A DNA stretch of 64,000 nucleotides from a virus (IMGVR_UViG_3300031787_009175:30784-94783), one strand, 5' to 3'. Positions 7,431 to 44,692 are shown, counted from the stretch's first letter. The notes: generated by a model from the sequence alone, not told the origin. Numbers and translations: made by a program.

Positions 7431-7431
7431 A

Positions 7432-8112
7432 TTATTCTTTTATTTTGCAAACCCATCCAACGTTTATGAATTCATCAAACATATATTCAGAAAGATTATT
7501 TGTTTCTGAACATTCACTAATATCAGAATTTTGGATTTCCATCCAATTCCAAAATCTATTTTTCATTTTTTCTTCAAAAAAAATATTATTGGGAGCGTAA
7601 TCGTGAGCCATAATAACGTCCCCTTTCTTAAGCAATTTAGAAATTAATCTGAATTCATTTTTTTTACTCCCTCCATCACATAACACTAAAGTTACGCCTT
7701 CACCTTCTATAAAATCGGACAGTTCTTTTTCGCATGAGTTGTCTTTGAAAGATTGATAATCTTGCGAAAATAAATTTTTACCGACATATCTAATGTCTTC
7801 ATTTTTTAACCTGTCGATTACATAGTCCGGACTACTGACATCATAAGTTCTAATTTCCGTGATTGGGAGTGAATTAAAATTCATTAAGTCCTTAATTATT
7901 AATGTAAGCCCACCGTGAAAAGTTCCTATTTCTAACACTCTTTTGGGTTTTATTTCTTTAATTAATTTGTCAAATCTATAAAGAATGTTAGGATTTTGTT
8001 CAATAGCCAACCCTTTGTAACTAGCATGAGTTATTATTCCATTTCTGAAATTAGTATTAAAATAATCGTTTTCGAAACAATTATAACCTGAGCAGATAAA
8101 ATGTTCTTTCAT
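7432..8112 (-). CDS. Class I SAM-dependent methyltransferase (CmcI-like)
   Basis: VLEIGTFHGG motif I; CDGG and AHDY. Confidence 0.75.
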   Translation of the reverse strand: MKEHFICSGYNCFENDYFNTNFRNGIITHASYKGLAIEQNPNILYRFDKLIKEIKPKRVLEIGTFHGGLTLIIKDLMNFNSLPITEIRTYDVSSPDYVIDRLKNEDIRYVGKNLFSQDYQSFKDNSCEKELSDFIEGEGVTLVLCDGGSKKNEFRLISKLLKKGDVIMAHDYAPNNIFFEEKMKNRFWNWMEIQNSDISECSETNNLSEYMFDEFINVGWVCKIKE

Positions 8113-8128
8113 TGTTTATGTTTTTATG

Positions 8129-9085
8129 TTAGTATAATATATCTAAATTATTTAATAATGAAAATATTATTTTGTATTGGTTTTCAGGTAAACAATTTTC
8201 TACAAACCATTTCTTTGATTCCGAGATAATATTCTTACACTCTTGTGTATTATAAAAATCTATGAGTTCACAAACTTTACTGTTTATAATTTTTTCCAAA
8301 TTCTCACCGTTATTATAAATAATTTTATTTGTCAAATCATCATCCAAAAATTCTATATAATGAATGTTTTTTTCTAATCTATTATGGGTCAATGAATTTA
8401 GAGGTTGTCTTAAATTCAAAACCCCTAACCCAAATAATTCTAAATCCCTATAACAAATATTAGCGGCACCATTTAAACTTAAACCAAATTTGTAATTTGA
8501 TAATTCTTCATAGTATTGTTTTTTTTGTCTAAAATCCGAAGGGTTCGTTTTAGATTTTATATCAAAAAATTCATTTTTGGCCAAAAAATTCATAATATTC
8601 TGCCTTAACCCGTGATTTAATCCATTAAAATAAGATTTGGTCAATTTTCTCTCTTGAGGTTTTATATTTTGTATATATTCAACATCACTCCAATTTTCTA
8701 AATAATATACTGAAGGTTCTACTGAAATAATATCTTTGTATTTTTCTATAATACCTTGTGTTAAATTAGAAACACAAGACAACATCACGATGTTGAAATT
8801 ATTTTGTATTGAGTAATTTATTATTTCAGGGGCATAATCATACCAACTATGAACAAACATTTTTTCATTTGATGGGTTGTATATTACCAAATTAAACCAA
8901 TTGAAAATACTGGTGTAGTGATTGGATATCTCTTTACCGAATTTTGTTGCTAAATCCCTCAAAGAGATATACTCTAATTCGAATTCAGTATCGAACTCTA
9001 TTTTTTTATGAAAAAATTTATAGAACTCGCTTACATACCAATTATGGTATCCTTGCTCATAGGAAATTATAAGTTTTTTTTTCAT
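8129..9085 (-). CDS. Putative GT-B glycosyltransferase
   Basis: YYEELSNYKFGLSLNG...CYRDLE pattern resembling the C-terminal domain of GT-B/exostosin-like enzymes; operon context. Confidence 0.5.
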   Translation of the reverse strand: MKKKLIISYEQGYHNWYVSEFYKFFHKKIEFDTEFELEYISLRDLATKFGKEISNHYTSIFNWFNLVIYNPSNEKMFVHSWYDYAPEIINYSIQNNFNIVMLSCVSNLTQGIIEKYKDIISVEPSVYYLENWSDVEYIQNIKPQERKLTKSYFNGLNHGLRQNIMNFLAKNEFFDIKSKTNPSDFRQKKQYYEELSNYKFGLSLNGAANICYRDLELFGLGVLNLRQPLNSLTHNRLEKNIHYIEFLDDDLTNKIIYNNGENLEKIINSKVCELIDFYNTQECKNIISESKKWFVENCLPENQYKIIFSLLNNLDILY

Positions 9086-9942
9086 TTCTCTGTTGCATGT
9101 ATTATACCCCCTCTAGGACCTGTTTTATATCCATTAGGTGTGAACACTTTGGACCATATTGGATGGGAATATGATATATCAAAATCTTTGAATCCTGCCA
9201 AATAAGCGGAAACCCCAATCTCGAAACCCTCGGCCCAAGTCCCATATGTAAAATCTTTATTAACTAAATAATCGTGGAACCATTTCCAATTATCTACCAT
9301 TTTTTTTAGTTTACCATCTTTATTGATAAAGATAAGTAAATATTCAGAAGGTAAACCGGCGCCTGCCCAACCGTGATTCTCAAAATCCTTGATAGTTTTT
9401 TTATCAAAATCAATCATATCGTAGTTGTATAATTTGTGCCAAAAAACCGTACAATTCGCATAATCGTATTCCGACTGATTTATTTTTGAAAGACAGTTCG
9501 TGTTAAAAGTATTCAACAAGTTTCTAACTTTATAATCCGTTCTTGGTCCGAAAAAATCAAAACCATCTGATACCATTTTTTCATAGAAATTTTTAATTTC
9601 AGATTCATCCCACCAATCAAAGGAGTTGTCGCAATCTGTAAAGATAATCAAACTATTTTCTAGTTCTTTTACGTGGTCTAAGCAGAGATATCTCATATTA
9701 AAATTGAAATCATCCGCGCCTTTATTTGGACCAATTGGTAACCTTACTTTTAAATCATCACGATTCAATTCTTTTATTTTAATACGACTATTTTCACCGA
9801 ATTTATCTCTTATCAGTTGTGAACAATCTGTCGTGACATATATATCGATTTTTGAAAGAGATAACACATCCTCTATCATCCTCAATGTGTAATCCTTTGT
9901 ATAATTTTGACCTAAACTTAAGGTAGTTATTGCTATTTCCAT
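9082..9942 (-). CDS. Putative GT-A glycosyltransferase
   Basis: ITTLSLGQNY, YVTTD and IFTDCD (DxD motif). Confidence 0.55.
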   Translation of the reverse strand: MEIAITTLSLGQNYTKDYTLRMIEDVLSLSKIDIYVTTDCSQLIRDKFGENSRIKIKELNRDDLKVRLPIGPNKGADDFNFNMRYLCLDHVKELENSLIIFTDCDNSFDWWDESEIKNFYEKMVSDGFDFFGPRTDYKVRNLLNTFNTNCLSKINQSEYDYANCTVFWHKLYNYDMIDFDKKTIKDFENHGWAGAGLPSEYLLIFINKDGKLKKMVDNWKWFHDYLVNKDFTYGTWAEGFEIGVSAYLAGFKDFDISYSHPIWSKVFTPNGYKTGPRGGIIHATEK

Positions 9943-9948
9943 AATGTT

Positions 9949-10497
9949 TTATTTTGTTTTTTTGAAGGCACAATAATAGTAATAATGGGTCCCCATATCT
10001 ATCGGAATTTTTAGTTCTCTCCCATCTAAATTTATCAATTCTAACATAGGATAATATTCTTTCATAAGATTATCATCCAAATCAGGCTGTAAATGAATTT
10101 CATATTTGTTACCAAAAACTTCTCCCTGTGGTAAATAATACGGAACTACGACTAACAACTCCTTACATTTATCCTTTAACCTATTCAAAAGTAACACGGC
10201 ATCCTCTCTAGATAAATGTTCTAATATGTCACCCATAATGATAATATCGTAGTATTTGAATTCAAAATCCATAATATTTACGTTGTAAACATTATCATAC
10301 ATCGATTCTAATTCATATTCTTGAATATACGGTTTCCATATTTCTACAGCATCAAATTTTTGGAAATGGTTATTAAGTAATTTGAAGTAAAAACCATGTC
10401 CGCAACCAACATCTAATATTGATGAATCTTTATCAAAGTTTCTAGTTAAATATTCTTTTACGTCGGGTCCTAAATATCCCCAATTTCCTGGCATCAT
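9949..10497 (-). CDS. Class I SAM-dependent methyltransferase
   Basis: ILDVGCGHG; YDIIIMGDILEHL. Confidence 0.85.
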   Translation of the reverse strand: MMPGNWGYLGPDVKEYLTRNFDKDSSILDVGCGHGFYFKLLNNHFQKFDAVEIWKPYIQEYELESMYDNVYNVNIMDFEFKYYDIIIMGDILEHLSREDAVLLLNRLKDKCKELLVVVPYYLPQGEVFGNKYEIHLQPDLDDNLMKEYYPMLELINLDGRELKIPIDMGTHYYYYCAFKKTK

Positions 10498-10500
10498 TTT

Positions 10501-11373
10501 TTAAAAAAATTTACTAAGTTTATTAATTATTGGTTTTATGTTTTCAGATTCTAAAATTTCCTTTAATAAAAGTTTAGAATTTACTTCAGCATTCAAAAAT
10601 TTACCGTGTCTCACAATCTCAATATAATCAATTAATAAAAAATCTGAACCAATTTCTCTCTCGTCGGCATGGTAAGTTAGAGTAGGATAATGATAGCAAT
10701 AGTTTTTGAATCCAAAATCGAAAAAATTAATTTTTTTTTCGTAGAATGAGTAGTTATAAAACTCTTGTAACTTCCTTTTTTCTCCTTTAGTATTTTTAAT
10801 ATCAGTATTATCTAACTGATGTAGTGAAATCATAGGGTTCGAATTTAATAATTTAATCAGAGAATCTTTTTTCCAAATACATGGCTGAACTGAATACATA
10901 TGTCTAGCGGATTCATCGAATTCATAGAAACAATCCTTAGGGTAGTTGTATTTTTCATAATCTATTTCGGATTTCTTCCAATTACGTATAAACGCTTCCA
11001 AATGTTTTTGGGTGCTGAATGAAATAAAATCCGCTTTCAAATCCTCACAAATATTTACCAAGTTTTCGAACCTTTCTTTTTTAATTGGCGATTTGACCAA
11101 GTAATCATCGCATAACCAAAAAATATATTCTTCAGGTATTTCACTTAAACATTTAGTCATTGTTGGCCCAAAATGACTACCATCTATAGAAAACGGCGTT
11201 CCTGATTCTAAAAAAATGACATTTGGATTAACAATCTGATATGGTATCTTGTTTGACACAACATAGATTTTTTTACCTAAAAAAAAACAATTGTCAACAA
11301 CAAATTTTAATGTTAATTCTAGTAATTCAAAATAATTCTCATTAGTAAAAATAATAAAACAAATATCTCTCAT
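10501..11373 (-). CDS. Putative GT-A glycosyltransferase
   Basis: YIFWLCDDY; YSVQPCIWKK pattern; operon context. Confidence 0.5.
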   Translation of the reverse strand: MRDICFIIFTNENYFELLELTLKFVVDNCFFLGKKIYVVSNKIPYQIVNPNVIFLESGTPFSIDGSHFGPTMTKCLSEIPEEYIFWLCDDYLVKSPIKKERFENLVNICEDLKADFISFSTQKHLEAFIRNWKKSEIDYEKYNYPKDCFYEFDESARHMYSVQPCIWKKDSLIKLLNSNPMISLHQLDNTDIKNTKGEKRKLQEFYNYSFYEKKINFFDFGFKNYCYHYPTLTYHADEREIGSDFLLIDYIEIVRHGKFLNAEVNSKLLLKEILESENIKPIINKLSKFF

Positions 11374-11379
11374 AAAATC

Positions 11380-12747
11380 TCAATCCAAACTTAGAAAAGT
11401 GTTTAAATCCTCAGGAGTTCCTAATCCGAACATTTTATTAACATTGAATGTTTTAATTTTTTTTGAGTCTTCAATTGCTTGATTAAATACAGGACAGACA
11501 TAAAATTCATTATTTACTCTTATATTTTTTTCTATCATTTGTTCTGCATATTTAACATAATCTGAACCTTTTTTCCAAAAATAAATACCTACAGTAGCAA
11601 CATCTGATATCGGTTTTTTTTCCGCAACCTCAGTCACTAACCCAAATTCATTCAATTTAACAAATGACCATTTTGGGTGAGTCGATTTAAATGTAACTAT
11701 ACCCGCATCACACTCCGTTTCATTCATTTTATACATAAATTCATTGGAGTCCCACTCGATGAATTGGTCTGAATTAGCAATTATTAATGGATTATCGTTA
11801 TCAATGAACTTAGTAGCTAATAATGTAGTACACGCAGCACCTTCAGTTATTCCGTCAACCTCAACAATCTGACACGTTGGGGTTACTAAATTTAACAATG
11901 TATCTAAGTTATATTTTTCTCTGTGTCTTTTTTGAACGATAAAAATATAATTACCGTCAATATTTAAATTATCGACAACTAATTTAATCATTGGCTCACC
12001 ATTAACGTCAATCAATGGTTTTGGAAATGTATAACCCGCTCTCTCAAATCTACTTCCGGCTCCGGCCATAGGTATCAATATGTTTAATTTTTTATCTGAC
12101 CATTTTGGTGATTTAATAGTTTTTGAATTATTTAATTCATTTAACTTTTTTATGATTTTATCATAAGTTACATCATCAGCGTTTTTAACTCTTAAAACAT
12201 TTGAGTAACTTCTATTTGCGGCCAATAAACCGTAAGGTGAATCCTCAATAATTAATGTTTCTTCGGGTAAACATTCCATCATAGAAATCGCTTTCCAAAA
12301 AATTTCAGGATGAGGTTTACTGTTTTTAACATCTTCATTAGATAATACCAAATCAAAAAATTCAATAATTTCTAGTTTAGATAACACGGTTAATACAGTT
12401 TTTCTGACACTGTTACTGCAACAAACTATTTTATATTTTAATTTTGATAATTCAGATAAACAAAATATTAATTTTTGCGATTTTTCTAAATTAAGAATTT
12501 TTTTTAAAGTGTATTTTTGTTTTGTTTCCCAAACCACATTAAATGATGATGTAGGTAAACCTTTATTAGTGTGTAATAATTTTAATTTTTGATTTGTTTT
12601 TAAACCATCATATAAACTTAAATGTTCATTCCATTCAATTACATATTGTTCTCCAACATCTTTTAAAGCCTTATTTAAACTTTCATAGTGTATTTCTTTA
12701 GCATCTAATAAAACGCCGTCTAAATCAAAAATTATTGTTTTAATCAT
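11380..12747 (-). CDS. Fused HAD phosphatase / sugar nucleotidyltransferase
   Basis: FDLDGVL, KPHPE, IEDS (HAD) followed by IPMAGAGSRF...PKPLI, NSDQ, GLGTPEDL (NTP transferase). Confidence 0.85.
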   Translation of the reverse strand: MIKTIIFDLDGVLLDAKEIHYESLNKALKDVGEQYVIEWNEHLSLYDGLKTNQKLKLLHTNKGLPTSSFNVVWETKQKYTLKKILNLEKSQKLIFCLSELSKLKYKIVCCSNSVRKTVLTVLSKLEIIEFFDLVLSNEDVKNSKPHPEIFWKAISMMECLPEETLIIEDSPYGLLAANRSYSNVLRVKNADDVTYDKIIKKLNELNNSKTIKSPKWSDKKLNILIPMAGAGSRFERAGYTFPKPLIDVNGEPMIKLVVDNLNIDGNYIFIVQKRHREKYNLDTLLNLVTPTCQIVEVDGITEGAACTTLLATKFIDNDNPLIIANSDQFIEWDSNEFMYKMNETECDAGIVTFKSTHPKWSFVKLNEFGLVTEVAEKKPISDVATVGIYFWKKGSDYVKYAEQMIEKNIRVNNEFYVCPVFNQAIEDSKKIKTFNVNKMFGLGTPEDLNTFLSLD

Positions 12748-12748
12748 A

Positions 12749-13444
12749 TTACTTTTGTATATAAGCGGTAGGACATAAAAAATTTATAGATTTTAACTCT
12801 AAGTTTTTTTCTTGGATAAAACGGTCAACCCCTTTAGATTCACTCCACTTGTGGTAACCATATTCATCAAACACGATAATACCTCCCTTAGTCATATTGC
12901 CCCAAAAATTCGATAGTGTGTCATAAGTTGGTTTTTCTAAATCTAAATCCATATACAATAATGAAATTTTAAAACCAGGATTCTCATTTGAGAACATGTG
13001 AGTCGTAACAGATACGTCACCCTTAATTAAGTCAAATTCGTTAGGTAAAAAACCATCATTTAAAATCTTATTATATAAAATATCTCTATAATTTTCATCA
13101 TGATTAAAGTTTCGTTCTTTAAATAAACTATTCATATAAGTTTTATCTAAATCGTTTGTTAAGGTTGATACTAAACCATCATTATCAAAATAATCAAACC
13201 CAATTACTTTTTTATGAGTATTCGGATTAAAGACCCTCTTCAATTTTAAAAAAGAATATAAACCAGTACCTTTAAAAACACCACATTCAACTATATCTCC
13301 AGGAATATTTTTAACTTTATTATATATAAGTGTTCTTGCGATTAATTTATTAAAGATTTTAGTGTCCTCACTTAAAATAAAATTATTAAACGAATCGAAC
13401 AATTCTTGAGGTGTTTCAGTTAATTCTAAGTTTTTTATGTTCAT
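12749..13444 (-). CDS. TylF/MycF-like sugar O-methyltransferase
   Basis: PGDIVECGVFKG; LYMDLDL; GGIIVFDEY. Confidence 0.8.
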   Translation of the reverse strand: MNIKNLELTETPQELFDSFNNFILSEDTKIFNKLIARTLIYNKVKNIPGDIVECGVFKGTGLYSFLKLKRVFNPNTHKKVIGFDYFDNDGLVSTLTNDLDKTYMNSLFKERNFNHDENYRDILYNKILNDGFLPNEFDLIKGDVSVTTHMFSNENPGFKISLLYMDLDLEKPTYDTLSNFWGNMTKGGIIVFDEYGYHKWSESKGVDRFIQEKNLELKSINFLCPTAYIQK

Positions 13445-13887
13445 ATTTTTTTGTTATATTTTTCTATAACATCACTACATATACCAATACATAACGATGT
13501 ATTATCATCGTGCAATTCAGGTAAAACTGATATACTATTTTTAATGGGTTGTTTACCTGGATAAACCCATATGTGGTTATGCGATGTTAGTGTTATAGTA
13601 TCTGTTTCATGCCAAAAATAATTGAACTCATATTGATTTGTTTTAAAAAAAATTAATGAGTTAATATTCTTACAGTGAATCCATAATTTAGATTTTCTAT
13701 CTTCTAACCAATCAAGATTTATATCGTAAAGTGGTTTATCGTGTCCTAAAAATATATTGTCATTAACAACCCACACATCTATCTCAACATCATAACCGGA
13801 ATAGATTGCTTCATCTATGTATTCAGGATGGTTTTCTCTTAATTTATTTTCACCATTTATATTTCCTCTATGAGAAATCAATATCAT
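13441..13887 (-). CDS. Small GDPD/PLC-like phosphodiesterase
   Basis: ISHRGN, EN, VEIDV, LGHD, WIHCKN, GICSD. Confidence 0.7.
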   Translation of the reverse strand: MILISHRGNINGENKLRENHPEYIDEAIYSGYDVEIDVWVVNDNIFLGHDKPLYDINLDWLEDRKSKLWIHCKNINSLIFFKTNQYEFNYFWHETDTITLTSHNHIWVYPGKQPIKNSISVLPELHDDNTSLCIGICSDVIEKYNKKI

Positions 13888-15134
13888 AAATTCCCCGTTA
13901 TTCTTTCACACCATCCCTTAGATGTGGAATATGGCCATACAACCCAATACTTTGGTTTGTGAGATGTTTGGAATTCTCTCCAAACCTTACAATATCCATC
14001 AGGGTCATTTTTCATTCTGTTAATTTCATTTACATCAGCATCCTTTCTGAAAATTGTTTCGTCTTGTTCGTTGTGAAATGCAACTACCCAAAATTCATAA
14101 TCTTCTTCCGGAACTTGAGAATAACCAATATCAATACAATGTTTGAAAATTGATGCAAAACTATTTTTCCAATCCTCTTCGTTCTCAAAATTATATGTGT
14201 TTGGGGGATATGTTTTATCGATTGTTTCCTGTTGGATTGCCCTTCTTTCGAATAACAATCCTGAATATTTTTCATAATCCCTTAATGTTCTTTCAGTACC
14301 AAATCCATAAATTCCAAATTCATCGGGATTATAAGTTTCACCGTCCATAGAAAATAATTTTCTATTCTTAAGATGTGCTCTGTTGTTTTTTGAAACCCAA
14401 TCTCTATCATCGTCCCATTGTTTAGTTCTACCTTTTCTTGTATATTCGTGCCAAATTAATGCTTTATGTGGGTGAAACAAATCATATCCGTGTGTGTAAG
14501 CTCTTGCTGCGATTGAAATTTCTTCTCCGTGAAAATAGAATTCGGGGTCGTGTTGAACTTCTTTAGAAAATTCACCTAATGTGAAGCAGTAGTGTGCTGA
14601 GTAAAATCTCGCAGTAACAGGTTCCTTCAATTCCTGCCAATTTGGTATTGTTTCAGGTAAAAAGAAAACCGCCCCCTCAGGTATAAATCTATCGAACACC
14701 ATCCTCCAAGGTTCTTGAATTCTTTCTTGTGGGTCGTTATCAGGATTAAACGATGAAACATATCCCGTTAGAAGAGGTTTTTTATGACCTTTCTTTTGTA
14801 ATTGTTTAATCATTTTAATCATTTCATCATCCCAATTTGGTGCAAACCTCATATGTGAGTCAATTTGTAAGGTGTATTCTTCACCTTGATATAGTTGTTG
14901 AATTTGATTTCTTGCCCAACAAGCGCCATTTGACTCTAAATAAAAAATATCAAGTATTCTAAATCTTTTATCTTTTCTATATTCATCTAAAGTGTCAAAT
15001 TTATCATCAGGATGATATTGACGGGCAATTCCAAAAACTAAATTTTTTGGTTTTTTTGCATTTTCGATTGCTGATTTAATTGTTTTTTCTAATTCGGGGT
15101 CCCTATAAGACGCAATTTGAATAAAAATTTTCAT
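13884..15134 (-). CDS. GT60-like polypeptide N-acetylglucosaminyltransferase
   Basis: IFIQIASYRDPEL, GACWAR, LQIDSHMRF..WD, FHGEE, HEY: motifs of the Skp1/mucin-type alpha-GlcNAc transferase family. Confidence 0.8.
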   Translation of the reverse strand: MKIFIQIASYRDPELEKTIKSAIENAKKPKNLVFGIARQYHPDDKFDTLDEYRKDKRFRILDIFYLESNGACWARNQIQQLYQGEEYTLQIDSHMRFAPNWDDEMIKMIKQLQKKGHKKPLLTGYVSSFNPDNDPQERIQEPWRMVFDRFIPEGAVFFLPETIPNWQELKEPVTARFYSAHYCFTLGEFSKEVQHDPEFYFHGEEISIAARAYTHGYDLFHPHKALIWHEYTRKGRTKQWDDDRDWVSKNNRAHLKNRKLFSMDGETYNPDEFGIYGFGTERTLRDYEKYSGLLFERRAIQQETIDKTYPPNTYNFENEEDWKNSFASIFKHCIDIGYSQVPEEDYEFWVVAFHNEQDETIFRKDADVNEINRMKNDPDGYCKVWREFQTSHKPKYWVVWPYSTSKGWCERITGNL

Positions 15135-15206
15135 ATATTATTGTTCTATTTTGATATAAAAATAATACTTGAAAAAAACAAATAAATAGATTATTTAAGT
15201 GATTTA

Positions 15207-18200
15207 CTATGGTAATCCCCACGGAGCGCATTTAGGGTCGTGAGTTAAATCTGTAATTGTTGTGTATGTTGTACCAGGAGGACCTGGTATCATATCTCCT
15301 GATACAAGTGTGAATACGTAGTTACCGGATGAAAAAGTTATGTTGAACACTGCACCATTGACTGTTGCAACATAAAACTGAGGTAAAGTAATGCCTGGGA
15401 ATGGGAAAAACGGTCCTGACGCTCCATTAGATACAGGTAAGTTTAACTTTTGGGTTGTAGATTGTACCGAGTAAGTAAATGTGAATTGGTTGTAAATTAT
15501 ATCCACTAAATAAGTGTCAACGCCAACTTTGATTGGTAAAACAAAACTAGAAGGTTCTTCGTACAAATGTATAGAACCGTTCAATGTACCACCACTAGGT
15601 AAGTCAAATAGGAAAGTTTCTACAGGTGTTGAGGTTGCTATATTTACTCTATACATTTTCTGAACCCCTAAAACAGATTTTACATAATGTAGGATGTTGT
15701 TTGTACCAGGTTGGTTGTTTGCGATTTTTATTATATTACCACCAGTTACGTTTATAGTTCTATTATATATCGGATTGAAATTTGTGGCTGTAGTTGTAAA
15801 TTCATATATATTATTCATATCCGCAAAATACATTTTGTTGGTAGGACTATAAATGTTGGCAAAAGTGGTCAAAGAACCTGATGATAATTGAACCTCAATA
15901 TCTTCATACCAAATATTAGTTGCTAAAGAAGTGGGAGGTTGAGCGTATCTCGAAATGTTTGTCAGAGTTGTATATCCCAATGGTTCTCTTGTCATACTAT
16001 AGATATTACAACCCTGAATTCTTGTGATTGTATATGTATTAGAAAACCCTGATACTTGTTGACAAATAACTGAACTTCTATCACCCGCTGGAGGACAAGC
16101 ACCTTCTGAAAGTGGGTCACAACAAATTTTCACAACTCTGAAAAATAAGTTTGTGAATGAATTCGGAATTGGTCCATTGTTTACTGTTTGGGGAGATGTA
16201 CAAGAAAAATTAACACTTCCGATAAAACCTAACCAAGGACCATTCGGACTCACTGTAGAATATTGGACATTTACATCACAACAAGAATTACAATCAATTA
16301 AATCAAAAAACACACTATAAGTCCAACCACCATTTTGCTGGAATGAATAAGTTATATTAGTTATGTTCGGTCCGCAACAACAATCACTCGGTGTGTTAAT
16401 AAAAATACATTCATCACAATCACGACTAACTTTATATGATGCTGATAAAGATGTTGTTATGTCAGGAGAGTTACTACTTAATCCAAGCACCTGTAGACAC
16501 ATGTTATTTGGTGGTGCTAAGTAAATTTGGAACACTTGTGCGGTTATAAATTCATTATATTGTAAAGAAGTTAAACCGGTCAACCTTACATAATATGTCT
16601 GTGACGTACAACAACTTTCTGTTTCTAGAGTGACCTCAAAGTTCGTTTGAGTTGGAGTCGGTGTGACAGTAGGTGTTTTTGTAACTGTAGGTGTTTGAGT
16701 TGGTGTTTGAGTATTTGTAGGGCTCTGCGTTAAAGTCGGAGTTTGTGTCGGCGTTTGTGACTTTGTTGGGGTTGGTGTTTTTGTCGGTGTTTTAGTTTGT
16801 GTAACAGTAGGGGTTACTGTTTTTGTTGGGGTAGGTGTCGGAGTAGGTGTCGGAGTAGGTGTTGGTGTTGGGGTAGAACTAACAGGTGATAAGCAGTTCG
16901 CGCAATCAACATAAGGACCTCCGTTTACCGTTGCTGTAAATTGTGAATTAACGCAACCTGTGAGTGTATCGATAACGGTGAAACAATTTTCTTCGATTCT
17001 TTCTATCCCTATTATATTGTTTGCATTATATGTTACGTTATTAATTGTAATACTACTAAAATTACCACCAACTAAATATCTTCCACTTTGATTGTCTATT
17101 TTGATGATATCGTAAAACTCACTATTTGTACTACCTGTCATAGTTTGAAGAAGAGAACCATCTGAGTTAACATAGTACAATTTGCCAATATTCTTGTTAG
17201 TACCAACTAAAAATTTTCCATCACTCAAAAGAAGGATTTTCAAAAAAATTTGGGTCGAGGTAAATCCACTAGACCAAGATTGGGCGTTGAATGTATTGTC
17301 GATTGTCCCGCCAGAATCGAATCGTACGATATTTACAATATTTTGGGTATTTGCCGATGAAAATCCACCAACCACAACAATCTTACCGTCGTTTTGAATC
17401 ACTAAGTCTATTGCACCTCCTAAACCTCCAACGTTGTTTACAGTACCAGAGAATGTAGTGTCCAAAGTACCATCCGTATTTAACCTCATAATACCTTTAA
17501 GAGGGTTGGAATTATAACCAGTTATATTTCCACCGACAACAACTTTATCGTCAGATTGTAATTTGATTGTAAAAATATCTCTCATTTCAGCACCATTACC
17601 ATAATTGACAAAAGAGGTATCTATTTCCCCATTGGATTTCAACTTTATTAATCCTGGACTTGAAAATCCTGAATATGTGGTAAATGTACCTCCAACAAAA
17701 AATCTATCTTGTACTAATGTATCTAAAGTTAATACATAAACCTCTTGGTTAAATCCTGTACTTGAAGAGAATGTATTATCGTAAACCCCTGCATCGGTTG
17801 TTCTGACGATATAGTTAACGTTATTTACTCCATAACCTGTAAATCTACCACCCAAAATTATATTCCCTGTTGACTGTTCAATTGTATCGAAAACATAAGA
17901 ATTGGCACCACCCGCATCTGTATAATTTTGGAACTCATTAGAATCAAATAAAGAATCGAAAGTTCCAACACCATTTGTGGATGTGTACAAATAAGCGATA
18001 TTTCCGTTGTATGCTGAAAAAGAACCACCATAAATTATTGTATCGGCTTTCTGAGTGAGTTGTAATAAACTTGAAACCTGTGCATTCAGACCGCTAAAAC
18101 CTATCCCATATACAAATTCTTGGTCTTTGTAAAATACATCAGGGAATCCTGTAATGTTATATGTGTTATTTTCCAACAAAGTTGTGGTACTGTCGGCGGT

Positions 18201-21200
18201 AAAGGTCAACCCACTCACTGTACATGAACTCAAAACGTACGATTCTAAATTCACACTTGTACAACCATTACAATCACTATAACCTGTCCAAGCAATTGTT
18301 GCACCTGTTGTTTCAACACTACCCCCACCTCTACTATAACACAAATCATTATAAACAATCACAGGTTGGAAATATATAGAATATCCCGCATCATAAATAG
18401 GGATTATATCTCCACCATCACAACAATTTGTGTAATCCCTAACTCCAAACCCACACGGGTTACCTAGATTGTTTAACGCTACCGTACAATTGATATAGTC
18501 GTAATTTATAAAACAGTTAGTACCGAAGTTACCTGTTGAAGCACTTACCATAGAATATGGTAGACTGTCATCAGGATTAATAACAACATTACCCGCCACG
18601 AAGTTTTCAGGAACAATTCCAAATGTGACTAAAGTTGGAGTACCGTATGGGTCATCGCAACAAGATATAAAATCATAAGCGGTAAATCCACACTCACACT
18701 TGTTTTGTTGTTGACACTGAAGACATTCTCCAGTTTGGAAATCCGGAATTTCATAACTGAAAACACCTGATTGACTATTATCAAATGCAACCAATTTAAA
18801 ACATTTTGTGCCTGTTATGGTCGGGTCTTCATATTGTACAATATCACCAATATCCCAACCTGTATTATTTACATTGAAATAATATGTTAGTGTTTCGGTG
18901 CAACAATCTGTAAATCTTGCTCTTGTACAATATTGATTTAGATAATTAGACTCGCATGTTGAGCAATCACTTAAGAATGAACTAACAGGGAACGGTACTT
19001 GTGGGTTTACAGACCCAATGGTTGAACTTCCATTGAAATATAAACAAACTCCGACGGCCGTACCTCCACCTAATCCTCCCGTACCTTGAGTTGTTGTAGT
19101 ATTTCCTATTTGTAAATCATAAGAGAATTGAGTACCATATTGTGTTGTTTGTCCCGTCGGCACGACATTAACAACAAATTGTGTATCACCTGAACAACAA
19201 TCTAAAAATATCATAGGACAACCAACAGTTTGTACACATTCCCAACAAGTTGTATAAGCGGTAGTTGTATAGCTTTCACTATAAGTGCCCTCCTCAGGCA
19301 GATACTGATAAGCACTATAACATTGATTATTTGTTGTATCGGTGACTACATCTCCGACAGACCAAGAGTGTGTGAAAGTATCTAATAAATAATATTTTAC
19401 ATCGGTTTGAGTACAACAATCTCTGAATTCCCAAACTTGGAATTGAGGTGCGGGGGTTGGGGTCAAAGTCGGTGTCTGAGTAACCGTTACAGTTGGTGTT
19501 ACGGTTGGGGTTTGAGTATTTGTCGGTGTTTGAGTATTTGTAGGAGTTTGTGTGTTAGTAGGTGTGACGGTTGTGGTTGGCGTTTGTGTCTTGGTTGGTG
19601 TAGGAGTTGGAGCTGGTGTTTTAGTTGGAGTTTGGCTTACACAATTTATTGTACCATAAATGTCCAATTGGCATGCATCACAATCGTTATAGACTGATGA
19701 TAATGCAGGTGGATTAGTTAATGTGTAGATTGTAGTTGGATTGGATTCTATTATCGTTGCACAACCAACAAACAAATCCGAAACAATATATAACGTTTCT
19801 CCTATTTCATAGTTATATGGTATGGATGCAAATTCATCAGCAAAAATGAACTTTATTGAATTACAACAAGAGCTGAAACATCTAGTAACTTGGGCGGAAC
19901 ATAATTCACAATTATCAAATGTAGCACCTGTAATATAACTGCTTATGACAGATGGTGATGAATCAATAATATCTACCAAAGTCCAACAACCAGATAAATT
20001 AGACAATCCTACAACATCACCTAAGTTTATCGGAAGTGGTTCATCTACAAATACACAATTATCCGTAGGTTCGTTATATGAAATAATTCTATTGAATGAA
20101 TTTGTGATATTTGTTGTCGAGAACCCTGTTACAGTTGGGTCAATCTGCCAATTAAAGTTTTTCAATCCTACACCATCTTGTAATGATGGAGTCAGGTTTT
20201 GATAAACCGTACTAGCCGTAAACGCTGTAATAGGATTTATTGTTTCCAAAGTAACAAATGTCCAATTAGGTGACATAACAGGATTTATAAACGGCCATAC
20301 ACCACCATTGAAATTGTATTTGTTACCAAAATATGTCGATGTATTTGTCTCGCCTTCAATTATAGCCAAAGAAGTTAAAATGAATTGATATCCAATAGGT
20401 AGGTTATATGGTTGAGGTAATATTCCTGCAAAAGAAGGTTCAGGATATAAAAAGTTTTCTATTTCCCCTAAAGATACATATTTCAAATCATACCAAACAT
20501 TCAAATATGCCTCATAATCATCTAACACATTAGTTAAATTGAAATTAAAATTATCCGGTTGATTAGTTGTATTACCTGATGTATTATATCCACTAGTGTT
20601 GGTAGTATAAGCGTTTTGAGCCTCATTTATGATATTAATAGTGATATAGTTAGTATCTCTGAATGAATCTACGTTTCCACCATAGGTATATATCGGTGAT
20701 GAATTTACCGTGTCAGATGAGAAAGAATTTCTTATACCACTCGAATATTGGTTTTTTGTCCCATCGAAATTTAAACCTCTGTTGATATTATAGTTCACTG
20801 TACCAACACCCCCATCAACAACATAACAGTTCAAAGGATTACTTATAAATCCTGATGACAATGTTCCTCCCAATAAAGACCCCAAATACGGATAGCAAGA
20901 CCACCACATCCAATTCATACCGTATACCACCATTTCGTATAAATTTCCAGTGTAACCGCTATTGTTTACTAAATCCGAATACCAAGACCTAATATTTTGA
21001 GATGCCCCACTTAATGTTGACGGTGAGTACGAAGGACTTGCATCATAAAAAACATAAATGTTTTTTGTTAAATCGGTTGTCGCCGAACACTGACACATTT
21101 GATAAATTGGATTGAAAGAACATTCACCTTGTGAGTTTGTACAACCACTACAACTTGCAAATGTAGAACCTGTATTTGAATTTAGGTAATATAAATTTTC

Positions 21201-24200
21201 AGCCGGTTGATTTACAATTCTGAAACACCCTTGTAATCCATTTCCATCAAAATAATACGTAAGATTTTGGTCAAGACCATAAATTGTATTATATGTCATA
21301 CCAAAACCACTGAAATTGTATGTGGTACCTGATAGTAAATCACAACAAGCGCTGAATGATTTTTGATTCGATGTTGGTGTTACGGTAGGTGTTGGGGTTG
21401 ATGTTGGTGTTGCAGGTGGAGTTGGTGGAGGTGTTTCAGTTGGTGTCGGTGTTACGGTATTTGTCGGTGTTTGTGTGTTTGTTGGTGTCGGAGTAGGTGT
21501 AGGACAAACACCCCCTACGCAAGCACCAATTAATTCAGCAGTCCCAGAACCGAAACTAGTTATACTCCTTACACAAAAATTACCTGAAACTCCTGGTGCG
21601 ACCGATTGAGATACACCATTACAATCAACATATACTAATGCTGTCGAAGTCCTACCAATACTAACTGTTATAAAATAACAATCACAAACAGGGGTTGTTG
21701 GTGTCACAGTCGGAGTCACAGTACTCGTAGGTGTGGGTGTTGGTGTTGGGCATGGATTTGTTGATGTACAATCCTCACAAGAAGATTGTAACAAAATACT
21801 TTGATATTGAAAGTTTTCAGGTATGCCGATTTTATTCACACATCTAACGCATCCACTGAATCCTATCGTTTCTACGTAATAATAGTTACCAACTAATGGG
21901 GCAAATGCAAAAGGTATATCAAAAATTCTTATTTGTCTGTTATCACAACAACCAGTAAATAATCCAACTACGGGTGGAAATTGTGTAATAGTCGGAGTTG
22001 GCGTCAATGTTGGTGTTTGCGTGACAGTATTTGTTGGTGTGGTAGTATTGGTAGGTGTAACAGTATTGGTAGGTGTAACAGTATTAGTTGGAGTTACAGT
22101 ATTGGTCGGCGTTTGAGTTGGTGTTTGTGTTGATGTGGGACTTGGACTTTGACCAGGTGTAGGGGTAGGTGTTGGGGTCGTAGTTGAAGTAGGTGTTGTT
22201 GTAGGTGTTATAGTTGGAGTCGATGTTGGACTCGGACTAATGTCAACACAAGGAGCTAGTATTCCTGAATTATTAGACTGGCAAGTAAAACAGTCGTCCT
22301 CTAAAATGTAACCCACAATTGAGTAATTCAGATTAGGGGAAACGTTGGACGTGATTGTCACACAAGCATAGTAAGGATTGCCACCCACGGTAAACTCCAT
22401 CAAGTAAAAATCTCCAACATCACCAGCAGTAAACAAAGCTCCTGTTTGATAAATTTTACCATTTCCACAACAATCAACAGCCGCAATTTGTAGAGGAGTT
22501 GTTGGTGTAGGAGTTATAGTTGGAGTTTGTGTTTTAGTAGGTGTTACAGTTTGAGTTTGAGTATTCGTTGGTGTATTAGTTGGTGTTTGGGTTGTAGTAT
22601 TTGTAGGTGTTTGTGTGTTGGTTGGTGTATTTGTAGGCGTCTGCGTTGAAGTATTTGTAGGAGTGTTTGTTGGTGTTTGTGTCGAAGTGTTTGTAGGGGT
22701 AGTAGTAGGGGTATTAGTAGGCGTTTGCGTGTTTGTAGGTGTTTGAGTTGTTGTGTTCGTAGGAGTATTTGTAGGAGTATTTGTAGGGGTATTAGTAGGT
22801 GTTTGAGTATTTGTTGGTGTATTTGTTGATGTTTGGGTTTGAGTGTTAGTTGGTGTATTAGTTGGTGTTTGTGTATTGGTTGGCGTGACAGTGTTAGTCG
22901 GAGTTTGTGTGTTAGTCGGAGTTTGTGTGTTAGTCGGAGTTTGTGTTGTCGTAGAAGTTGGAGTGTTAGTTGGAGTTTGAGTAGATGTTGGCGACGGGGT
23001 TGCACCTGGTGTTGGTGTGTTAGTGGGAGTTTGAGTATTAGTTGGAGTTTGTGTGTTAGTCGGAGTAATAGTATTTGTGGGTGTAACAGTATTAGTTGGC
23101 GTTTGTGTGTTAGTCGGAGTAACAGTATTCGTAGGTGTTTGAGTATTCGTAGGTGTTTGAGTATTGGTAGGCGTTTGAGTATTCGTAGGAGTCAGCGTAT
23201 TCGTTGGCGTTTTAGTATTGGTAGGTGTTTGGGTATTAGTTGGTGTAACCGTATTTGTTGGCGTTTGAGTATTTGTAGGTGTTTGAGTATTCGTAGATGT
23301 TACAGTATTAGTTGGGGTATTAGTAGGTGTTTGAGTTGTGGTATTAGTTGGGGTATTAGTAGGTGTTTGAGTTGTGGTATTAGTAGGGGTGTTAGTTGGG
23401 GAAGGGGAAACTGCTGGGGTAGGAGTTTGTGTATTAGTAGGGGTTATTGTCGGAGTATTGGTTGGGGTGACAGTGGATGTATTTGTCGGTGTCTGTGTAT
23501 TTGTCGGGGTGATTGTATTAGTTGGCGTTTGTGTATTTGTCGGGGTGATTGTATTAGTTGGGGTTTGTGTATTGGTTGGTGTTGTAGTGGGAGTTTGTGT
23601 CTTAGTGCTAGTAGGTGTAACAGTATTAGTCGGGGTATTAGTTGGTGTTGTTGTGTTCGTTGGTGTGTTAGTCGGTGTCTCAGTATTCGTTGGTGTGTTA
23701 GTCGGTGTCTCAGTATTAGTTGGTGTGTTGGTTGTTGTCTGAGTTGGTGTAGGTGTTGGAGTTTCACCTGGTGTTGGAGTTACAGTAGGTGTAACTGTTG
23801 GAGTCACGGTTGATGTTGGTGTTTTTGACGGGAATGGTGTTTTTGTTGGAGTTCTAGTTGGGGTACTTGTTGTGGTTTCAGTTGGAGTATTTGTTGGAGT
23901 GAGAGTTATGGTCGAAGTATTAGTTGATGTTATTGTATTGGTAGGTGTTATAGTGTTAGTTGGTGTCGATGTATTAGTTGGTGTATTAGTTGGTGTTTCT
24001 GTATTTGTAGAAGTATTTGTCGGAGTGTTAGTTGGTGTCTCTGTATTTGTCGGGGTATTAGTCGGCGTATTGGTTGGTGTGACAGTATTTGTCGGTGTTG
24101 GAGAAGGGGTTGGACAAGTAGCACTACCTGTCGTTGCACTTAAACATTCTGTACATCCTGTATATATAACTACTTTCTGTAAGTTGTAATAGAAATTTGT

Positions 24201-25076
24201 AAACTCCCTTGCAACCACAGAACATCCACTAAATGCGTCAGTTTCGAAATAATAAACTTTTGTGGGGTCCACCTTATCTATATAACCAACATTATCTATC
24301 AGGTTGAATATATATCCCCCACAACAAGAGCTAAATGTTAGAGGTAATAAAGTTGAGGTTGGAGTTACCGTTGGTGTTGGTGTTGTAGTAGGTGTAGGAC
24401 ATACACTAGAACCTGTCTCGGCCGACAAACATAAATCACAAGTATTATATTCAGTTAGAGCGGTGTAAGTATATGTTGCACTCGGTCTACCAAACCCAAC
24501 TGTTGCACAAGTACTAAAACCTGAGTCAGTTTCAACATAGTATGTTTTAGTTTGGTCTAACACATCCTCTATTTTACCGTTAGATACAGCAAAAACAAAA
24601 TTACCACAACAAGATATAAAAGATAATGTTAAATTTGTTGGTGTTATTGTAGGAGTTGGTGTTTGGGTTGGTGTTGTTGTTGGCGCTGGCGTTCTTGTCA
24701 GTGTTGGTGTTGCAGTAATTGAAGGTGTAACTGTTGGAGTAACTGTATTTGTGGGGGTTACTGTTGGAGTATTGGATGTTGGTGTAACTGTAGGGGTTAC
24801 AGATGGAGTTACGGTTGGTGTTGGTGTAAATGTGGGGGTTGGTGTTTGTGATATTGTACAATCTATCACTTGGAATGTTTCGCAACCAACCCCATCGACA
24901 ATTTTCAAAATCAAAGGATTCAACCCCTCGAACTCTGCCGGTATAGGGTCTTCTATTGTCGGTGGAATTGTTGTTAGAATTTCAGACAATAGGTAACAGG
25001 TTGTGAGAGTTAAATCACAAATACTTATACTATATGGTGGGGTTCCCGTTACATTATTAACCTGAATTATATTCAT
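15207..25076 (-). CDS. Giant 3289-aa mucin-like protein: Thr/Pro repeats, Cys-rich modules, vWA-like and delta-60 beta-propeller domains (probable virion fibre)
   Basis: Uninterrupted ORF; TPTNTQ/TPT blocks; repeated FxxCC...C...CxxC modules; DASPS MIDAS-like motif; [23 protein letters not shown] repeats; TATTTAT upstream. Confidence 0.85.
22495..24110 (-). repeat. Coding tandem repeats ([10 protein letters not shown]) forming the main mucin-like block
   Basis: Degenerate 12- and 18-bp units such as GTATTAGTTGGTGTTTGA; about 540 aa made almost entirely of T/P/N/Q. Confidence 0.9.
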
Positions 25077-25080
25077 ACCG

Positions 25081-25087
25081 ATAAATA
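25081..25087 (-). promoter_or_regulatory. Putative late promoter TATTTAT
   Basis: 4 nt upstream of the ATG of the giant gene. Confidence 0.55.
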
Positions 25088-25148
25088 CACCTTTTACTGA
25101 ATTTAATAATAACCAAACATATTATGAATTAAATATTTACTTTGTCAT

Positions 25149-25559
25149 TTAACACGTTGGTGTTGATGAAGGTGTTCTTGTTACTGAAGGAGTCATTGTT
25201 GGGGTTTTAGTTTGTGTAGGCGTTTGTGTAGGCGTTTTAGTTGGGCAAGGATTTATTGTTGGTGTAACGGTCACAGTCGGTGTTGGGGTCGGAGTTTGGG
25301 TTCTTGTAACCGATGGGGTAGGTGTTGGTGTTGGAGTTGGCATCGGCACCGAAATTGTATAAGAACAATCCTTGTTAACTATATAAATCGAATAGTCACC
25401 ATAAATATATTGAGGTGGTGATAAAGTATTGGAACTAAAAACGTAAGGTAAAACTTGTTCACCAAGATAAAATGAAATTGTTTTTCCATACGGAGTGAAC
25501 ATAATCTGAGCAGTTTCCCCTGAAAAATTTACACTTTCAATCGTTATAACTTGTTGCAT
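25149..25559 (-). CDS. Small protein with a C-terminal Pro/Thr mucin-like tail
   Basis: About 70-aa globular N-terminus followed by PTPTPT... repeats ending in Cys. Confidence 0.75.
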
Positions 25560-25561: not shown

Positions 25562-27484
25562 TTATGGTAGATTATAGGTTATATCGTTTGTATCACAAAC
25601 AGGGTAACACTTTGGACAATCAGGATTAAACATATCAAACTTATCTTTTAACAAAAGGAAATTATGTTTGACCTCTGGTGCGGTTAATGGACTAACATAC
25701 ATTCTGAATTGACTTATACCACCCTCGAATGTTCCTGCAAAATTTTGTTCAATCAGTATGTTAGTTGTTAATGACGATAAAGATGTTGCACTCAAAACGT
25801 TATTAGGAAATAACTCAGGGTCCTGTATATAAGAATTTGTCAATCCTGTTGGACATGCTGAAAAAACTAAATTCTCTCTTAGTCCTTGCGTCCCACCTCC
25901 CCAAGATATATTAAAAGGAACTCCAATTTGTTTTTCTTTGTCAGCATTTAGAGCTCTTGGTATTATCTCTTCTACATCTTCAATGGTGTAAAATATTCTT
26001 CCATTTACGTAGATTTTCAATCTACCGTTTCTGTAGTGTTTGTCTATCAACCATTTTTCATTTAACTGAACTATTTCAATTTGCTCAGGTGTTAGATTTT
26101 GATGTGTCACAGGTGGACTTATCAAATAAACTGAATTGTTTGCCAACGAATCCAAGTAAACCAATTTTGTGATATCACCTAATCCTCCTCTAAAATATAA
26201 ATCACAAGTATCAAGCCATGTGTAACGTTCCCAAACCACATCAACCAAAAACCAATGTTCAGAGGTTGTATAAGCAGAATTTACACCCAAACAATAATCA
26301 TATATTCCATTTGGAGAACAGTAATTATCTATTGTATATCCCGTCGAATAAGTAATACCACTTGTTTCACAAGAACCCGTTGTTTCACAGTCGCCAGTAA
26401 ATCTCAAAATTCTCACACCAATTTTAGGATTCCCATCTTCACCACACAATCTCAGAGAAATTGCGTTTGACATCGAATCATAGATTGGGTCTTTATCAGG
26501 AATATTTGATATCGTTCCTGAATTACATCCGCACCCACAACCTACTGCGTGAGAAACCGTAATTCCTGTTGGTTCATATACGTCAACACATCTTGAATTT
26601 GTGACACCAGTATTTGAACAAGCACAAGTTTTTAAACAATCTGCTAATGATTCCGTAACTCTTGTATATCCTGTGTCAGATGATGGAACACCGTTTGCGT
26701 GATGACCGTACTTGTTTTCGGCTCTTGTTCCCATATAAAAGAACATATTTCTATTATCAGGATAAATTTCATTTAATGTTGTTTGGCCTGTCGTTGCACT
26801 AAATTCGTTTGTCAAACGAGGTTTAATAATCATTTCCACGGACCATCCTTTATTCATTCTTGATGGAAATAGGTCATAATCATAACCAAATAACTTGTAA
26901 AACCCTTGGTAAAATCCACCATATAACTCTTGGTAATAACCAATGTAGGGGTCTATCTTTGATACTATTTCATATATTGTTTGGGCCGATATTCCTGAAA
27001 ACCTAACATTTGGAGATGATGTATATCCTGTGACTTGAGTTAGTTTTAATCTTCTATCGAAATTATATCTACCAAACTTATCTGAATCCGAAAATAATCC
27101 TTGAGTTATTGTGATGGTTTGTCCGGTCATTCCCGTTACCAAACCATTATCAATACCTGTTAAACCTATGTCACACAAAGTTTCCGAACTAAAACAAGTT
27201 AAATCCAATCCATTAGGATTATAATAATTTTCAGAAATCAGAACATTGTTGAAATTATATTCACCATAAGATAAACTCAACCTTTGATTTGACGACAAAC
27301 TATTCAAATCAAAATAAAATGGCAGTCGATTACCGTATGTTTGGGCAATCAAATAAGGTGAAAAAACTACTTCTTGATTGAAATCCAACTCGTCGGAAGC
27401 TAATGATATATCATTCAAATCGTAGAAATGACTATCTAAATAAAACTTCTTGAAAACATACTGATTAATGTTTTGTTGTGCCAT
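25562..27484 (-). CDS. Putative virion protein with LamG/ConA-like elements
   Basis: [40 protein letters not shown]; start moved to MAQQ at 27484, downstream of the TATTTAT motif. Confidence 0.6.
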
Positions 27485-27498
27485 TTTATTTTTTATAG

Positions 27499-27525
27499 AT
27501 AAATACACAACATCAGAGTATTTAT
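27499..27525. promoter_or_regulatory. Divergent pair of putative late promoters (TATTTAT)
   Basis: ATAAATA at 27499-27505 and TATTTAT at 27519-27525 between divergent genes. Confidence 0.6.
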
Positions 27526-32776: not shown

Positions 32777-32777
32777 T

Positions 32778-35397: not shown

Positions 35398-35403
35398 AAA
35401 ATT

Positions 35404-36069: not shown

Positions 36070-36084
36070 AAATTTAAGATTAAG

Positions 36085-36744: not shown

Positions 36745-36745
36745 A

Positions 36746-38483: not shown

Positions 38484-38484
38484 C

Positions 38485-40552: not shown

Positions 40553-40569
40553 TCATTAATTTAAAACAA

Positions 40570-44691: not shown

Positions 44692-44692
44692 A

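Follow-up and report, generated by a model that had tools for sequence, protein, structure and literature searches.

The DNA described here is a 64,000-nucleotide stretch (hereafter the window) of the viral record IMGVR_UViG_3300031787_009175 from IMG/VR, which is 94,783 bp long and of which the window covers bases 30784–94783. On the minus strand of the window lies a block of co-oriented genes which encode, in order of reading, a protein of 648 amino acids (aa), a protein of 136 aa, a very large modular protein of 3289 aa (the giant), a glycosyltransferase (GT) of the GT60 family and, as a small open reading frame (ORF), a protein of 148 aa. The giant and the 136-aa protein contain Thr/Pro-rich stretches (PT tracts), and the arrangement raises the possibility that the enzyme O-glycosylates the PT tracts of the proteins encoded next to it.

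The genes for the GT60 enzyme, the giant and the PT-tailed 136-aa protein have the positions and sizes that were given in the initial annotation of this DNA (Table 1). The 136-aa gene and the giant, as well as the giant and the GT60 gene, are separated by 72 bp, while overlaps of 4 bp join the 648-aa gene to the 136-aa gene and the GT60 gene to the 148-aa ORF. No terminator-like site was predicted between the block genes, in promoter and terminator consensus scans that performed here no better than on shuffled sequence. In the whole 94.8-kb contig only two ORFs, the giant and the 136-aa protein, have PT tracts, so their composition is not a matter of chance, and both lie directly upstream of the GT60 gene. 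A signal-peptide-like N-terminus is absent from the GT60 enzyme and from the giant, 136-aa and 648-aa proteins.

The GT60 enzyme and its predicted fold

The enzyme matches the Pfam family PF11397 (GlcNAc) with 233.3 bits against a cut-off of 21 (E 7.7e-69), and the match was repeated in a six-frame search of the genome. This hidden Markov model (HMM) result bears out the GT60 assignment of the initial annotation, which had also named three motifs; all three are present, IASYRD at residues 7–12, QIDSHMRF at residues 90–97 and GEE at residues 203–205. The protein also matches phrog_24687 over its full length (E 5.9e-171), a group which PHROG annotates only as 'glycosyltransferase'. In an alignment of 52 diverse homologues, residues D92, S93 and H94, the DxH of QIDSHMRF, show a conservation of 90% or more, and E205 and H229, the latter the candidate for the distal His of the metal site, do not vary in any of the 52. 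The enzyme has no transmembrane segment and no signal peptide and is thus expected to be soluble.

GT60 is the family of the polypeptide alpha-N-acetylglucosaminyltransferases (pp-alphaGlcNAcT), related to GT27 and lacking its ricin-like domain (PMC8724618, PMC6939170). The characterised members all act on polypeptides, either on mucin-like Ser/Thr or, in the case of a soluble cytosolic enzyme, on hydroxyproline of Skp1, and mucin-type O-glycans are initiated by GT60 enzymes in Dictyostelium and Trypanosoma cruzi (PMC8724618, PMC6939170). No prolyl hydroxylase or other 2-oxoglutarate (2OG)-dependent oxygenase was found in the 95-kb contig (about two-thirds of the genome lies outside it), which makes Thr a likelier acceptor than hydroxyproline.

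An AlphaFold (AF2) model of the enzyme, with a predicted local distance difference test (pLDDT) score of 96.8, consists of a GT-A catalytic domain (about residues 1–327) followed by a C-terminal alpha/beta domain of about 90 aa which lies outside the structural alignments. The 29 best matches of the model in a structure search are all GT27 polypeptide N-acetylgalactosaminyltransferases (GalNAc-Ts), with Z-scores of 19.2–22.7 over about 270 residues and a root-mean-square deviation of about 3.5 Å, whereas generic GT-A enzymes reach a Z-score of 17.8 or less. The modelled fold is therefore nearest to that of the mucin-initiating ppGalNAc-transferases. The likeness is one of fold only, as sequence searches of the PDB gave nothing significant for GT60, either with the single sequence or with a profile of the 52 homologues. 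A ricin-type lectin domain, the feature that separates GT27 from GT60, was not detected: the protein has no ricin-B match in Pfam, and the GalNAc-T alignments stop near residues 327–332.

The GT60 family is a large one that falls into 4626 clusters at 50% identity. Public data hold more than 7000 near-identical proteins, counted in a close-homologue search that returned only relatives of at least 80% identity. Some proteins of the family are very long (up to 2461 aa) and have two to four separate GT60-like stretches.

The giant and the other block proteins

PT tracts make up 1030 of the 3289 residues of the giant and include 468 Thr (45%), 218 Pro (21%) and 44 Ser. With 512 Ser/Thr they contain just 30 charged residues. 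The large share of Thr/Pro repeats noted by the initial annotation is thus real, while its figure of about 900 residues falls short of the count. The longest near-unbroken stretch (residues 314–866, 553 residues) is built of degenerate hexapeptides, and in its DNA a degenerate 18-bp unit is arrayed in 33 copies at 22789–23372. The giant accordingly has the long Pro/Thr/Ser (PTS)-rich tandem-repeat region that is one of the two marks of mucin-like proteins, the other being dense O-glycosylation of the repeat. Positions 22001 to 24000 of the window show a GC skew of +0.64 and a GC content of 0.42, where the background lies at about 0.31. The biased ACN/CCN codons of the minus-strand PT array account fully for this jump at 22–24 kb, which is not a replication or island signal. 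The giant does not belong to the gel-forming animal mucins, as it has no secretory signal and no VWD, C8 or CTCK domain (Pfam finds DUF5122 only), and its six-Cys module is a domain of another kind. It may work like a mucin without being a member of that group.

Between the PT tracts, a six-Cys module of about 75 aa with the pattern CC...C...CxxC...C occurs in at least 11 copies, each capped by a PT tract. The copies span positions 16359–24629 of the window (minus strand; for example 24096–24344) and are also found in related loci (L006, L011, L012, L053, L069, L071, L153 and L366). Among 42 copies from this and related phages the six Cys are invariant and nothing else is conserved. In a confident AF2 model (pLDDT 87) the module is a small domain which is rich in beta structure and has a helix at its C-terminus. 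Foldseek returned no solved analogue (E >1), and an OB-like similarity in a wider structure search (Z-score 3.8 or less) is too weak to be interpreted. Its look-alikes are exclusively proteins of uncultured Caudovirales, and the module looks like a new, phage-restricted domain family.

The other globular parts of the giant have no Pfam match beyond DUF5122, and among cultured phages a fragment of the propeller alone was matched. Nothing in the Atlas search scored above 0.75 for the globular parts, of which the central and C-terminal domains are orphans.

The PT proteins of related loci share a limited number of beginnings. About six recurrent N-terminal types (A–F), of about 60–140 aa, are followed directly by PT sequence and then by distal parts which are unrelated to each other. 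Type A, found in the giant, opens 15 distinct PT proteins in the related loci, and type B, found in the 136-aa protein, precedes PT tracts in 10 relatives; no likeness was detected between these two N-domains. The N-terminal types were observed in loci L010–L085 and L362–L367 (for example L027:2885-3100, L045:8512-8739 and L010:9939-11717). The 648-aa protein begins with type F. It has no Pfam or PHROG match of its own and no match among cultured phages; relatives with a type F N-terminus carry Laminin_G_3 (E 1.6e-18) together with PT tracts, and the Atlas lead for the 648-aa protein is to clusters of LamG-like jellyrolls.

From these sequence comparisons, types A–F look as if they formed a common pool of domains that anchor exchangeable fibres. 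A conserved N-domain, a spacer and then quickly replaced distal modules are the reason for regarding the build as that of an anchored fibre, and on our analysis the likeliest reading of the PT proteins is as virion-anchored fibres or adhesins which set the contact with hosts or surfaces.

Table 1. Position of the block genes, parts of the giant and neighbouring glycan genes within the window (MT, methyltransferase; SAM, S-adenosylmethionine; HAD, haloacid dehalogenase).
Feature	Position	Strand	Content or support
648-aa type F protein (P0273)	25562..27508	-	Heads the co-oriented block; LamG/ConA-like C-terminal part; likely start Met at residue 9
136-aa protein (P0003)	25149..25559	-	Type B N-domain of ~70 aa and 65-residue PT tail ending in Cys
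Modular giant, 3289 aa (P0001)	15207..25076	-	Type A N-domain, PT linkers, six-Cys modules, mucin-like tract, propeller
Type A N-terminal domain of giant, ~75 aa	24852..25076	-	PT directly after; candidate anchor domain
Mucin-like core of giant, residues 314-866	22479..24137	-	Degenerate TPTNT(Q/P) hexapeptide repeats
DUF5122 beta-propeller region of giant, ~residues 2400-2728	16893..17879	-	PF17164, E 8.1e-29, 3 stretches
GT60-family glycosyltransferase, 416 aa (P0002)	13884..15134	-	PF11397, phrog_24687, fold
148-aa ORF	13441..13887	-	Start overlaps GT60 stop; phrog_34507, E 3.5e-31
Glycan island 1	5730..13444	-	Eight ORFs, family matches for five
TylF-like MT	12749-13444	-	Island 1, first
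bPGM-like HAD fused to sugar-1-P nucleotidylyltransferase	11380-12747	-	Island 1; followed by unknown 290-aa ORF
SAM-MT	9949-10497	-	Island 1; followed by unknown 286-aa and 318-aa ORFs
CmcI-like MT	7432-8112	-	Island 1
HtrL/YibB-like, 566 aa	5730-7430	-	Island 1, last
Glycan island 2	30233..48220	+	GTs, MTs, GDP-mannose 4,6-dehydratase, epimerase/reductases

GT60 and PT tracts in other phages

The association of GT60 with PT proteins, which the initial annotation had proposed to test, recurs in relatives and is found in the contig itself, within its clade, in divergent lineages and in cultured phages. The close clade comprises 73 loci in which the GT is 77–90% identical and upstream sequence is available. 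One to five co-oriented PT ORFs, from 100 to more than 3300 aa long, lie within 10 kb upstream in 64 of them, and in several of the others a PT ORF lies downstream instead. Globular segments of the giant are recognisable in only one of the related loci (L006). PT character and position persist while the globular content turns over.

A sample blind to the GT was obtained by scanning IMG/VR for a (PT)5-coding pattern and searching the records of at least 40 kb for PF11397. The family was present in 8 of the 27 records picked by a (PT)5 tract, with GT60 enzymes 29–72% identical to that of the contig. As controls served 24 records of a single clade, two complete genomes among them, chosen by a major capsid protein (MCP) like that of Flavobacterium phage immuto; none contained GT60 and essentially none contained PT tracts. 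In most of the positives the PT tracts cluster around the enzyme: 31 of 33 (PT)3 hits in the 229 kb of G014 lie within 3.5 kb of GT60, all 27 hits in G027 within 2.3 kb, and all hits in G024 and G009 within 7 kb, while G017 is mixed. The PT ORF is found upstream or downstream of GT60 depending on the lineage and the gene order differs. A neighbour of GT60 in G027 has a similar build of PT sequence and six-Cys-like modules.

Among cultured phages GT60 was found only in XacN1, Xoo-sp13, CM1 and RAS14, where it is 44–47% identical to the enzyme of the contig over the full length (47% for XacN1 ORF334). XacN1 and RAS14 gave 110 and 63 PT-pattern hits, against 3 and 5 for the reversed control patterns, and five large T4-like phages without GT60 gave 0–1 hits. 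The PT tracts of XacN1 are located in large proteins beside the baseplate-wedge, tail-sheath and head-completion genes. PT-rich stretches of XacN1 (AP018399.1) lie at 124–135, 203–213, 235–237, 250–259 and 272–281 kb; in XacN1 and RAS14 (OP752703.1) most PT linkers belong to large hypothetical proteins encoded close to structural genes. The PT-bearing products of XacN1 include those of ORF325, 350, 369–372 and 384.

Purified XacN1 virions show at least two Schiff-stained glycoprotein bands, which were not assigned to proteins (PMC5852040, Suppl. Fig. S4), and two phage GTs (ORF328 and ORF334) have been credited with the virion glycoproteins (PMC5852040). Glycosylation of the capsid and tail tube of mycobacteriophages has also been published (Freeman 2023, cited in PMC12619734). 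Phage virion glycosylation is therefore not unprecedented, and the statement of the initial annotation that no phage example is described was too strong in view of these two accounts. Neither of them names GT60 or PT/mucin-like acceptors, and literature searches joining GT60 to phage, or mucin-like proteins to phage, returned nothing relevant. Both the assignment to GT60 and the logic of PT tracts as acceptors appear to be undescribed so far.

The contig itself has a GC content of about 31% and a CheckV completeness of 32%, which for a record of 94,783 bp implies a genome near 300 kb. A major head protein of the gp23 type (phrog_138, E 7e-66) is encoded in the window; its best cultured relatives are that of Flavobacterium phage immuto and, beside it, that of a 484-kb uncultured phage (about 41–44% identity). 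A family-B DNA polymerase (PolB), PhoH and dUTPase are also encoded, and a tail sheath gene (phrog_23, E 2e-53) lies just upstream of the window. The head protein, the sheath, PolB and the large implied genome mark the contig as a fragment of a T4-like, contractile-tailed jumbo phage. A Bacteroidota host, probably of freshwater, is plausible in view of the relatives of the MCP, the DUF5122 propeller and the SprB-like repeats of related phages. Upstream of the window and near the tail sheath gene, three minus-strand ORFs of the record (1796–8233, 8552–13342 and 13382–15295; 2145, 1596 and 637 aa) have neither a PHROG match nor PT tracts and may encode structural proteins.

Proposed O-glycosylation, its alternatives and known systems

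The initial annotation counted nine further glycan genes after GT60. Nine co-oriented ORFs do run down to position 5730, and family matches support five of them (glycan island 1, Table 1). Among the other four, the 290-, 286- and 318-aa ORFs of the island match no family, and the 148-aa ORF, which is translationally coupled to GT60, is tied to sugars through its cyanophage neighbours alone: homologues 38–53% identical occur in 17 Synechococcus T4-like phage records, where they adjoin genes for a HAD hydrolase, glucose-1-P thymidylyltransferase or phosphoheptose isomerase. We regard the 148-aa ORF, by these neighbourhoods, as an uncharacterised conserved part of phage sugar-nucleotide clusters which goes with them and not with GT60. 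It is unrelated to the small ORF next to the XacN1 GT60.

On the other side of the block, glycan island 2, the larger of the two, encodes a GT1-like enzyme, a double GT2 (499 aa), a GT8 and a GT2, three O-methyltransferases, a GDP-mannose 4,6-dehydratase and two NAD-dependent epimerase/reductases, interspersed with genes for a 3'-5' exonuclease, dUTPase, a small HAD-family phosphatase and PhoH. Judged from the encoded families, the sugars made by this island would be methylated 6-deoxyhexoses, and their synthesis would be cytoplasmic.

We consider it somewhat likelier than an even chance (a probability of roughly 0.55) that O-glycosylation by the GT60 enzyme takes place on the PT tracts of the modular proteins encoded next to it, and these proteins are probably fibres of the virion. 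The analysis shows the family and fold of the enzyme, the build of the candidate acceptors and the linkage of their genes, from which the acceptor, the sugar, the extension of the chains and the place in the virion are inferred. The soluble enzyme would take a host UDP-N-acetylhexosamine (UDP-HexNAc), most likely UDP-GlcNAc, and move the HexNAc to Thr residues of the uncharged Thr-Pro tracts in proteins encoded by its own gene block. The 136-aa protein with its PT tail and the giant, in which Ser and Thr offer about 510 sites, would be its main acceptors. Extension and capping of the chains could be the work of the surrounding GTs, the GDP-6-deoxyhexose enzymes and six MTs. The acceptors would then resemble 'beads on a string', with a small N-domain, stiff glycosylated PT spacers and fast-changing six-Cys, propeller and lectin-like parts. 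Roles of such fibres as a shield, in protease resistance or as bait are speculation.

Several observations weigh against this proposal. The linkage predicted for relatives holds in the close clade and is not universal: in a subclade with GTs 57–70% identical (loci L087–L143) most loci have no PT or Ser/Thr-rich ORF within 10 kb, and PT tracts occur in 2–4 of 16 records (fragments 7–74% complete, mostly 10–40%). PT tracts in G001 are 80–170 kb away from GT60, and one GT60-bearing fragment of 181 kb has no PT tract at all. In the 57–70% subclade, either GT60 acts on a different substrate or its acceptors are encoded far off, like the PT tracts of G001. Conversely, GT60 is missing from 19 of the 27 viral records with PT tracts, and PT linkers therefore also occur independently of the enzyme. 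Many of the positives are related and the controls are one clade, so the counts are not phylogenetically independent. The six invariant Cys of each module suggest disulfides, which are awkward for a protein folded in the cytoplasm. Finally, the giant has no PHROG or structural-protein match and sits among replication and glycan genes, outside any recognised structural module.

The PT-bearing records that lack GT60, and the subclade that lacks PT ORFs near it, would fit the main rival reading, in which the PT tracts are bare flexible linkers, the GT60 enzyme and the islands modify other phage proteins (capsid, sheath or globular domains) and the adjacency reflects a shared variable region. The phage virion glycosylation published so far targets capsid and tail-tube C-termini, not mucin-like tracts. 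We nevertheless think this unlikely, as the clustering of PT tracts by GT60 recurs where the GTs are 40% identical and the gene order has changed (31/33 and 27/27 hits within 3.5 kb), relatives without GT60 have essentially no PT tracts, and the nearest solved structures are of enzymes acting on mucin tandem repeats.

It is also conceivable, with a rather low probability, that GT60 glycosylates the PT proteins but that these are not parts of the virion and serve as adhesins, decoys or matrix, released on lysis or kept inside the cell. The giant, 136-aa and 648-aa proteins match no structural family, and their genes lie between the DNA polymerase and the glycan genes and not in a structural module. 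Small conserved N-domains followed by variable distal parts are, however, typical of anchored fibres, and the proteins have no secretion signal. XacN1, moreover, has Schiff-positive virions and encodes its PT proteins next to the genes for baseplate, sheath and head completion.

Remodelling of the host envelope has been proposed for the sugar-gene clusters of T4-like cyanophages, and both glycan islands, GT60 included, might similarly alter lipopolysaccharide or capsule during infection. The 148-aa, HAD and nucleotidyltransferase genes do have counterparts in the cyanophage clusters, and O-antigen pathways typically include GDP-mannose dehydratase, epimerases and O-methyltransferases. Among the scanned ORFs, however, none matched a flippase, polymerase or polyprenyl-phosphate (lipid-carrier) transferase family and none looked membrane-bound, which argues for soluble, protein-directed synthesis over an envelope polysaccharide. 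As the characterised GT60 enzymes act on polypeptides and the PT linkage would be left unexplained, we find this improbable. Glycosylation of hypermodified phage DNA by GT60 or its neighbours, as by the T4 glucosyltransferases, is highly improbable: virus GTs that hypermodify DNA are documented (Pyle 2024, cited in PMC12619734), the phage has a T4-like background and the HtrL/YibB-like ORF weakly matches a PHROG of beta-glucosyl-HMC (hydroxymethylcytosine) alpha-glucosyltransferase (E 5e-4), but the enzymes most like GT60 are those that modify polypeptides, the window yielded no hydroxymethylase and the PT linkage would again have no explanation.

A broader claim, that several jumbo-phage lineages run an autonomous cytoplasmic mucin-type O-glycosylation in which a GT60 initiator akin to the eukaryotic pp-alphaGlcNAcT/ppGalNAcT enzymes starts hundreds of glycans, extended with methylated 6-deoxyhexoses, on hypervariable PT-spacer fibres of the virion as a true glycocalyx, is in our view somewhat less probable than not. 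Under this broader claim phages would also be a large prokaryotic-virus reservoir of the enzyme family that initiates mucin glycosylation in eukaryotes. Self-glycosylation of viruses is known in chloroviruses, mimiviruses and a few mycobacteriophages; in phages it is deemed rare and its acceptor logic is not known. The pairing of GT60 with Thr-Pro tracts would provide a testable rule that applies to abundant environmental jumbo phages as well as to cultured phages of Xanthomonas and Stenotrophomonas, and the cultured XacN1 is an immediate way to check it. If glycosylation of the PT tracts by GT60 is true, it would account for the glycoproteins of XacN1 and would provide a soluble enzyme for mucin-type glycosylation in the bacterial cytoplasm, which would be of use in glyco-engineering. 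It would also mean that phage fibres can be bottle-brush glycoproteins, with a bearing on adsorption, on resistance to proteases and grazing and on the immune recognition of therapeutic phages. The evolutionary origin of the GT60/GT27 initiators would be informed as well.

Among known systems, the GT60 enzymes of protists (pp-alphaGlcNAcT2/GntB and Gnt1 of Dictyostelium, pp-alphaGlcNAcT of T. cruzi and Gnt1 of Toxoplasma) share with the phage enzyme the PF11397 domain, the DxH and the lack of a ricin-type lectin. Gnt1 is soluble and cytosolic, as the phage enzyme appears to be, and the protist acceptors include Thr/Ser-rich mucin-like domains (PMC8724618, PMC6939170). Unlike the Golgi enzymes of protists, the phage GT60 is encoded by a virus, would act in the bacterial cytoplasm and has the additional C-terminal domain of about 90 aa; a hydroxyproline acceptor of the Skp1 type is less likely for the phage, as the 95-kb fragment holds no prolyl hydroxylase. 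The animal GalNAc-Ts of GT27 are its best structural match, clearly above other GT-A enzymes, and their tandem-repeat PTS substrates resemble the phage PT tracts, which are the candidate substrates here. The phage enzyme differs from them in being only about 12–14% identical, in lacking a lectin domain and a membrane anchor and in not being a member of their HMM family.

Phages of the XacN1 group (with Xoo-sp13 and the Stenotrophomonas phages CM1 and RAS14) combine GT60 with many PT tracts, as the contig does. Their PT stretches are short linkers, in contrast to the 550-residue mucin-like array described here, and their GT60 gene is about 9 kb from the nearest PT giant, whereas the two are directly adjacent in the contig. 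In mycobacteriophages and in giant viruses (the chlorovirus capsid), structural proteins of the virus receive their glycans from GTs and sugar-nucleotide enzymes that the virus itself encodes, with no part played by the host secretory pathway, and the fibrils of mimivirus are likewise decorated by virus-encoded enzymes. The GT families of these viruses are different, and their targets are the capsid, tail-tube C-termini or N-linked sites and not PT tracts. A likeness in build is also seen in bacterial and fungal cellulases, in which O-glycosylated Pro/Thr linkers join small binding modules and the glycans are thought to stiffen the linkers and to protect them from proteases. Cellulase linkers differ from the phage tracts in being short and in receiving their modification in the course of secretion, from transferases that are unrelated.

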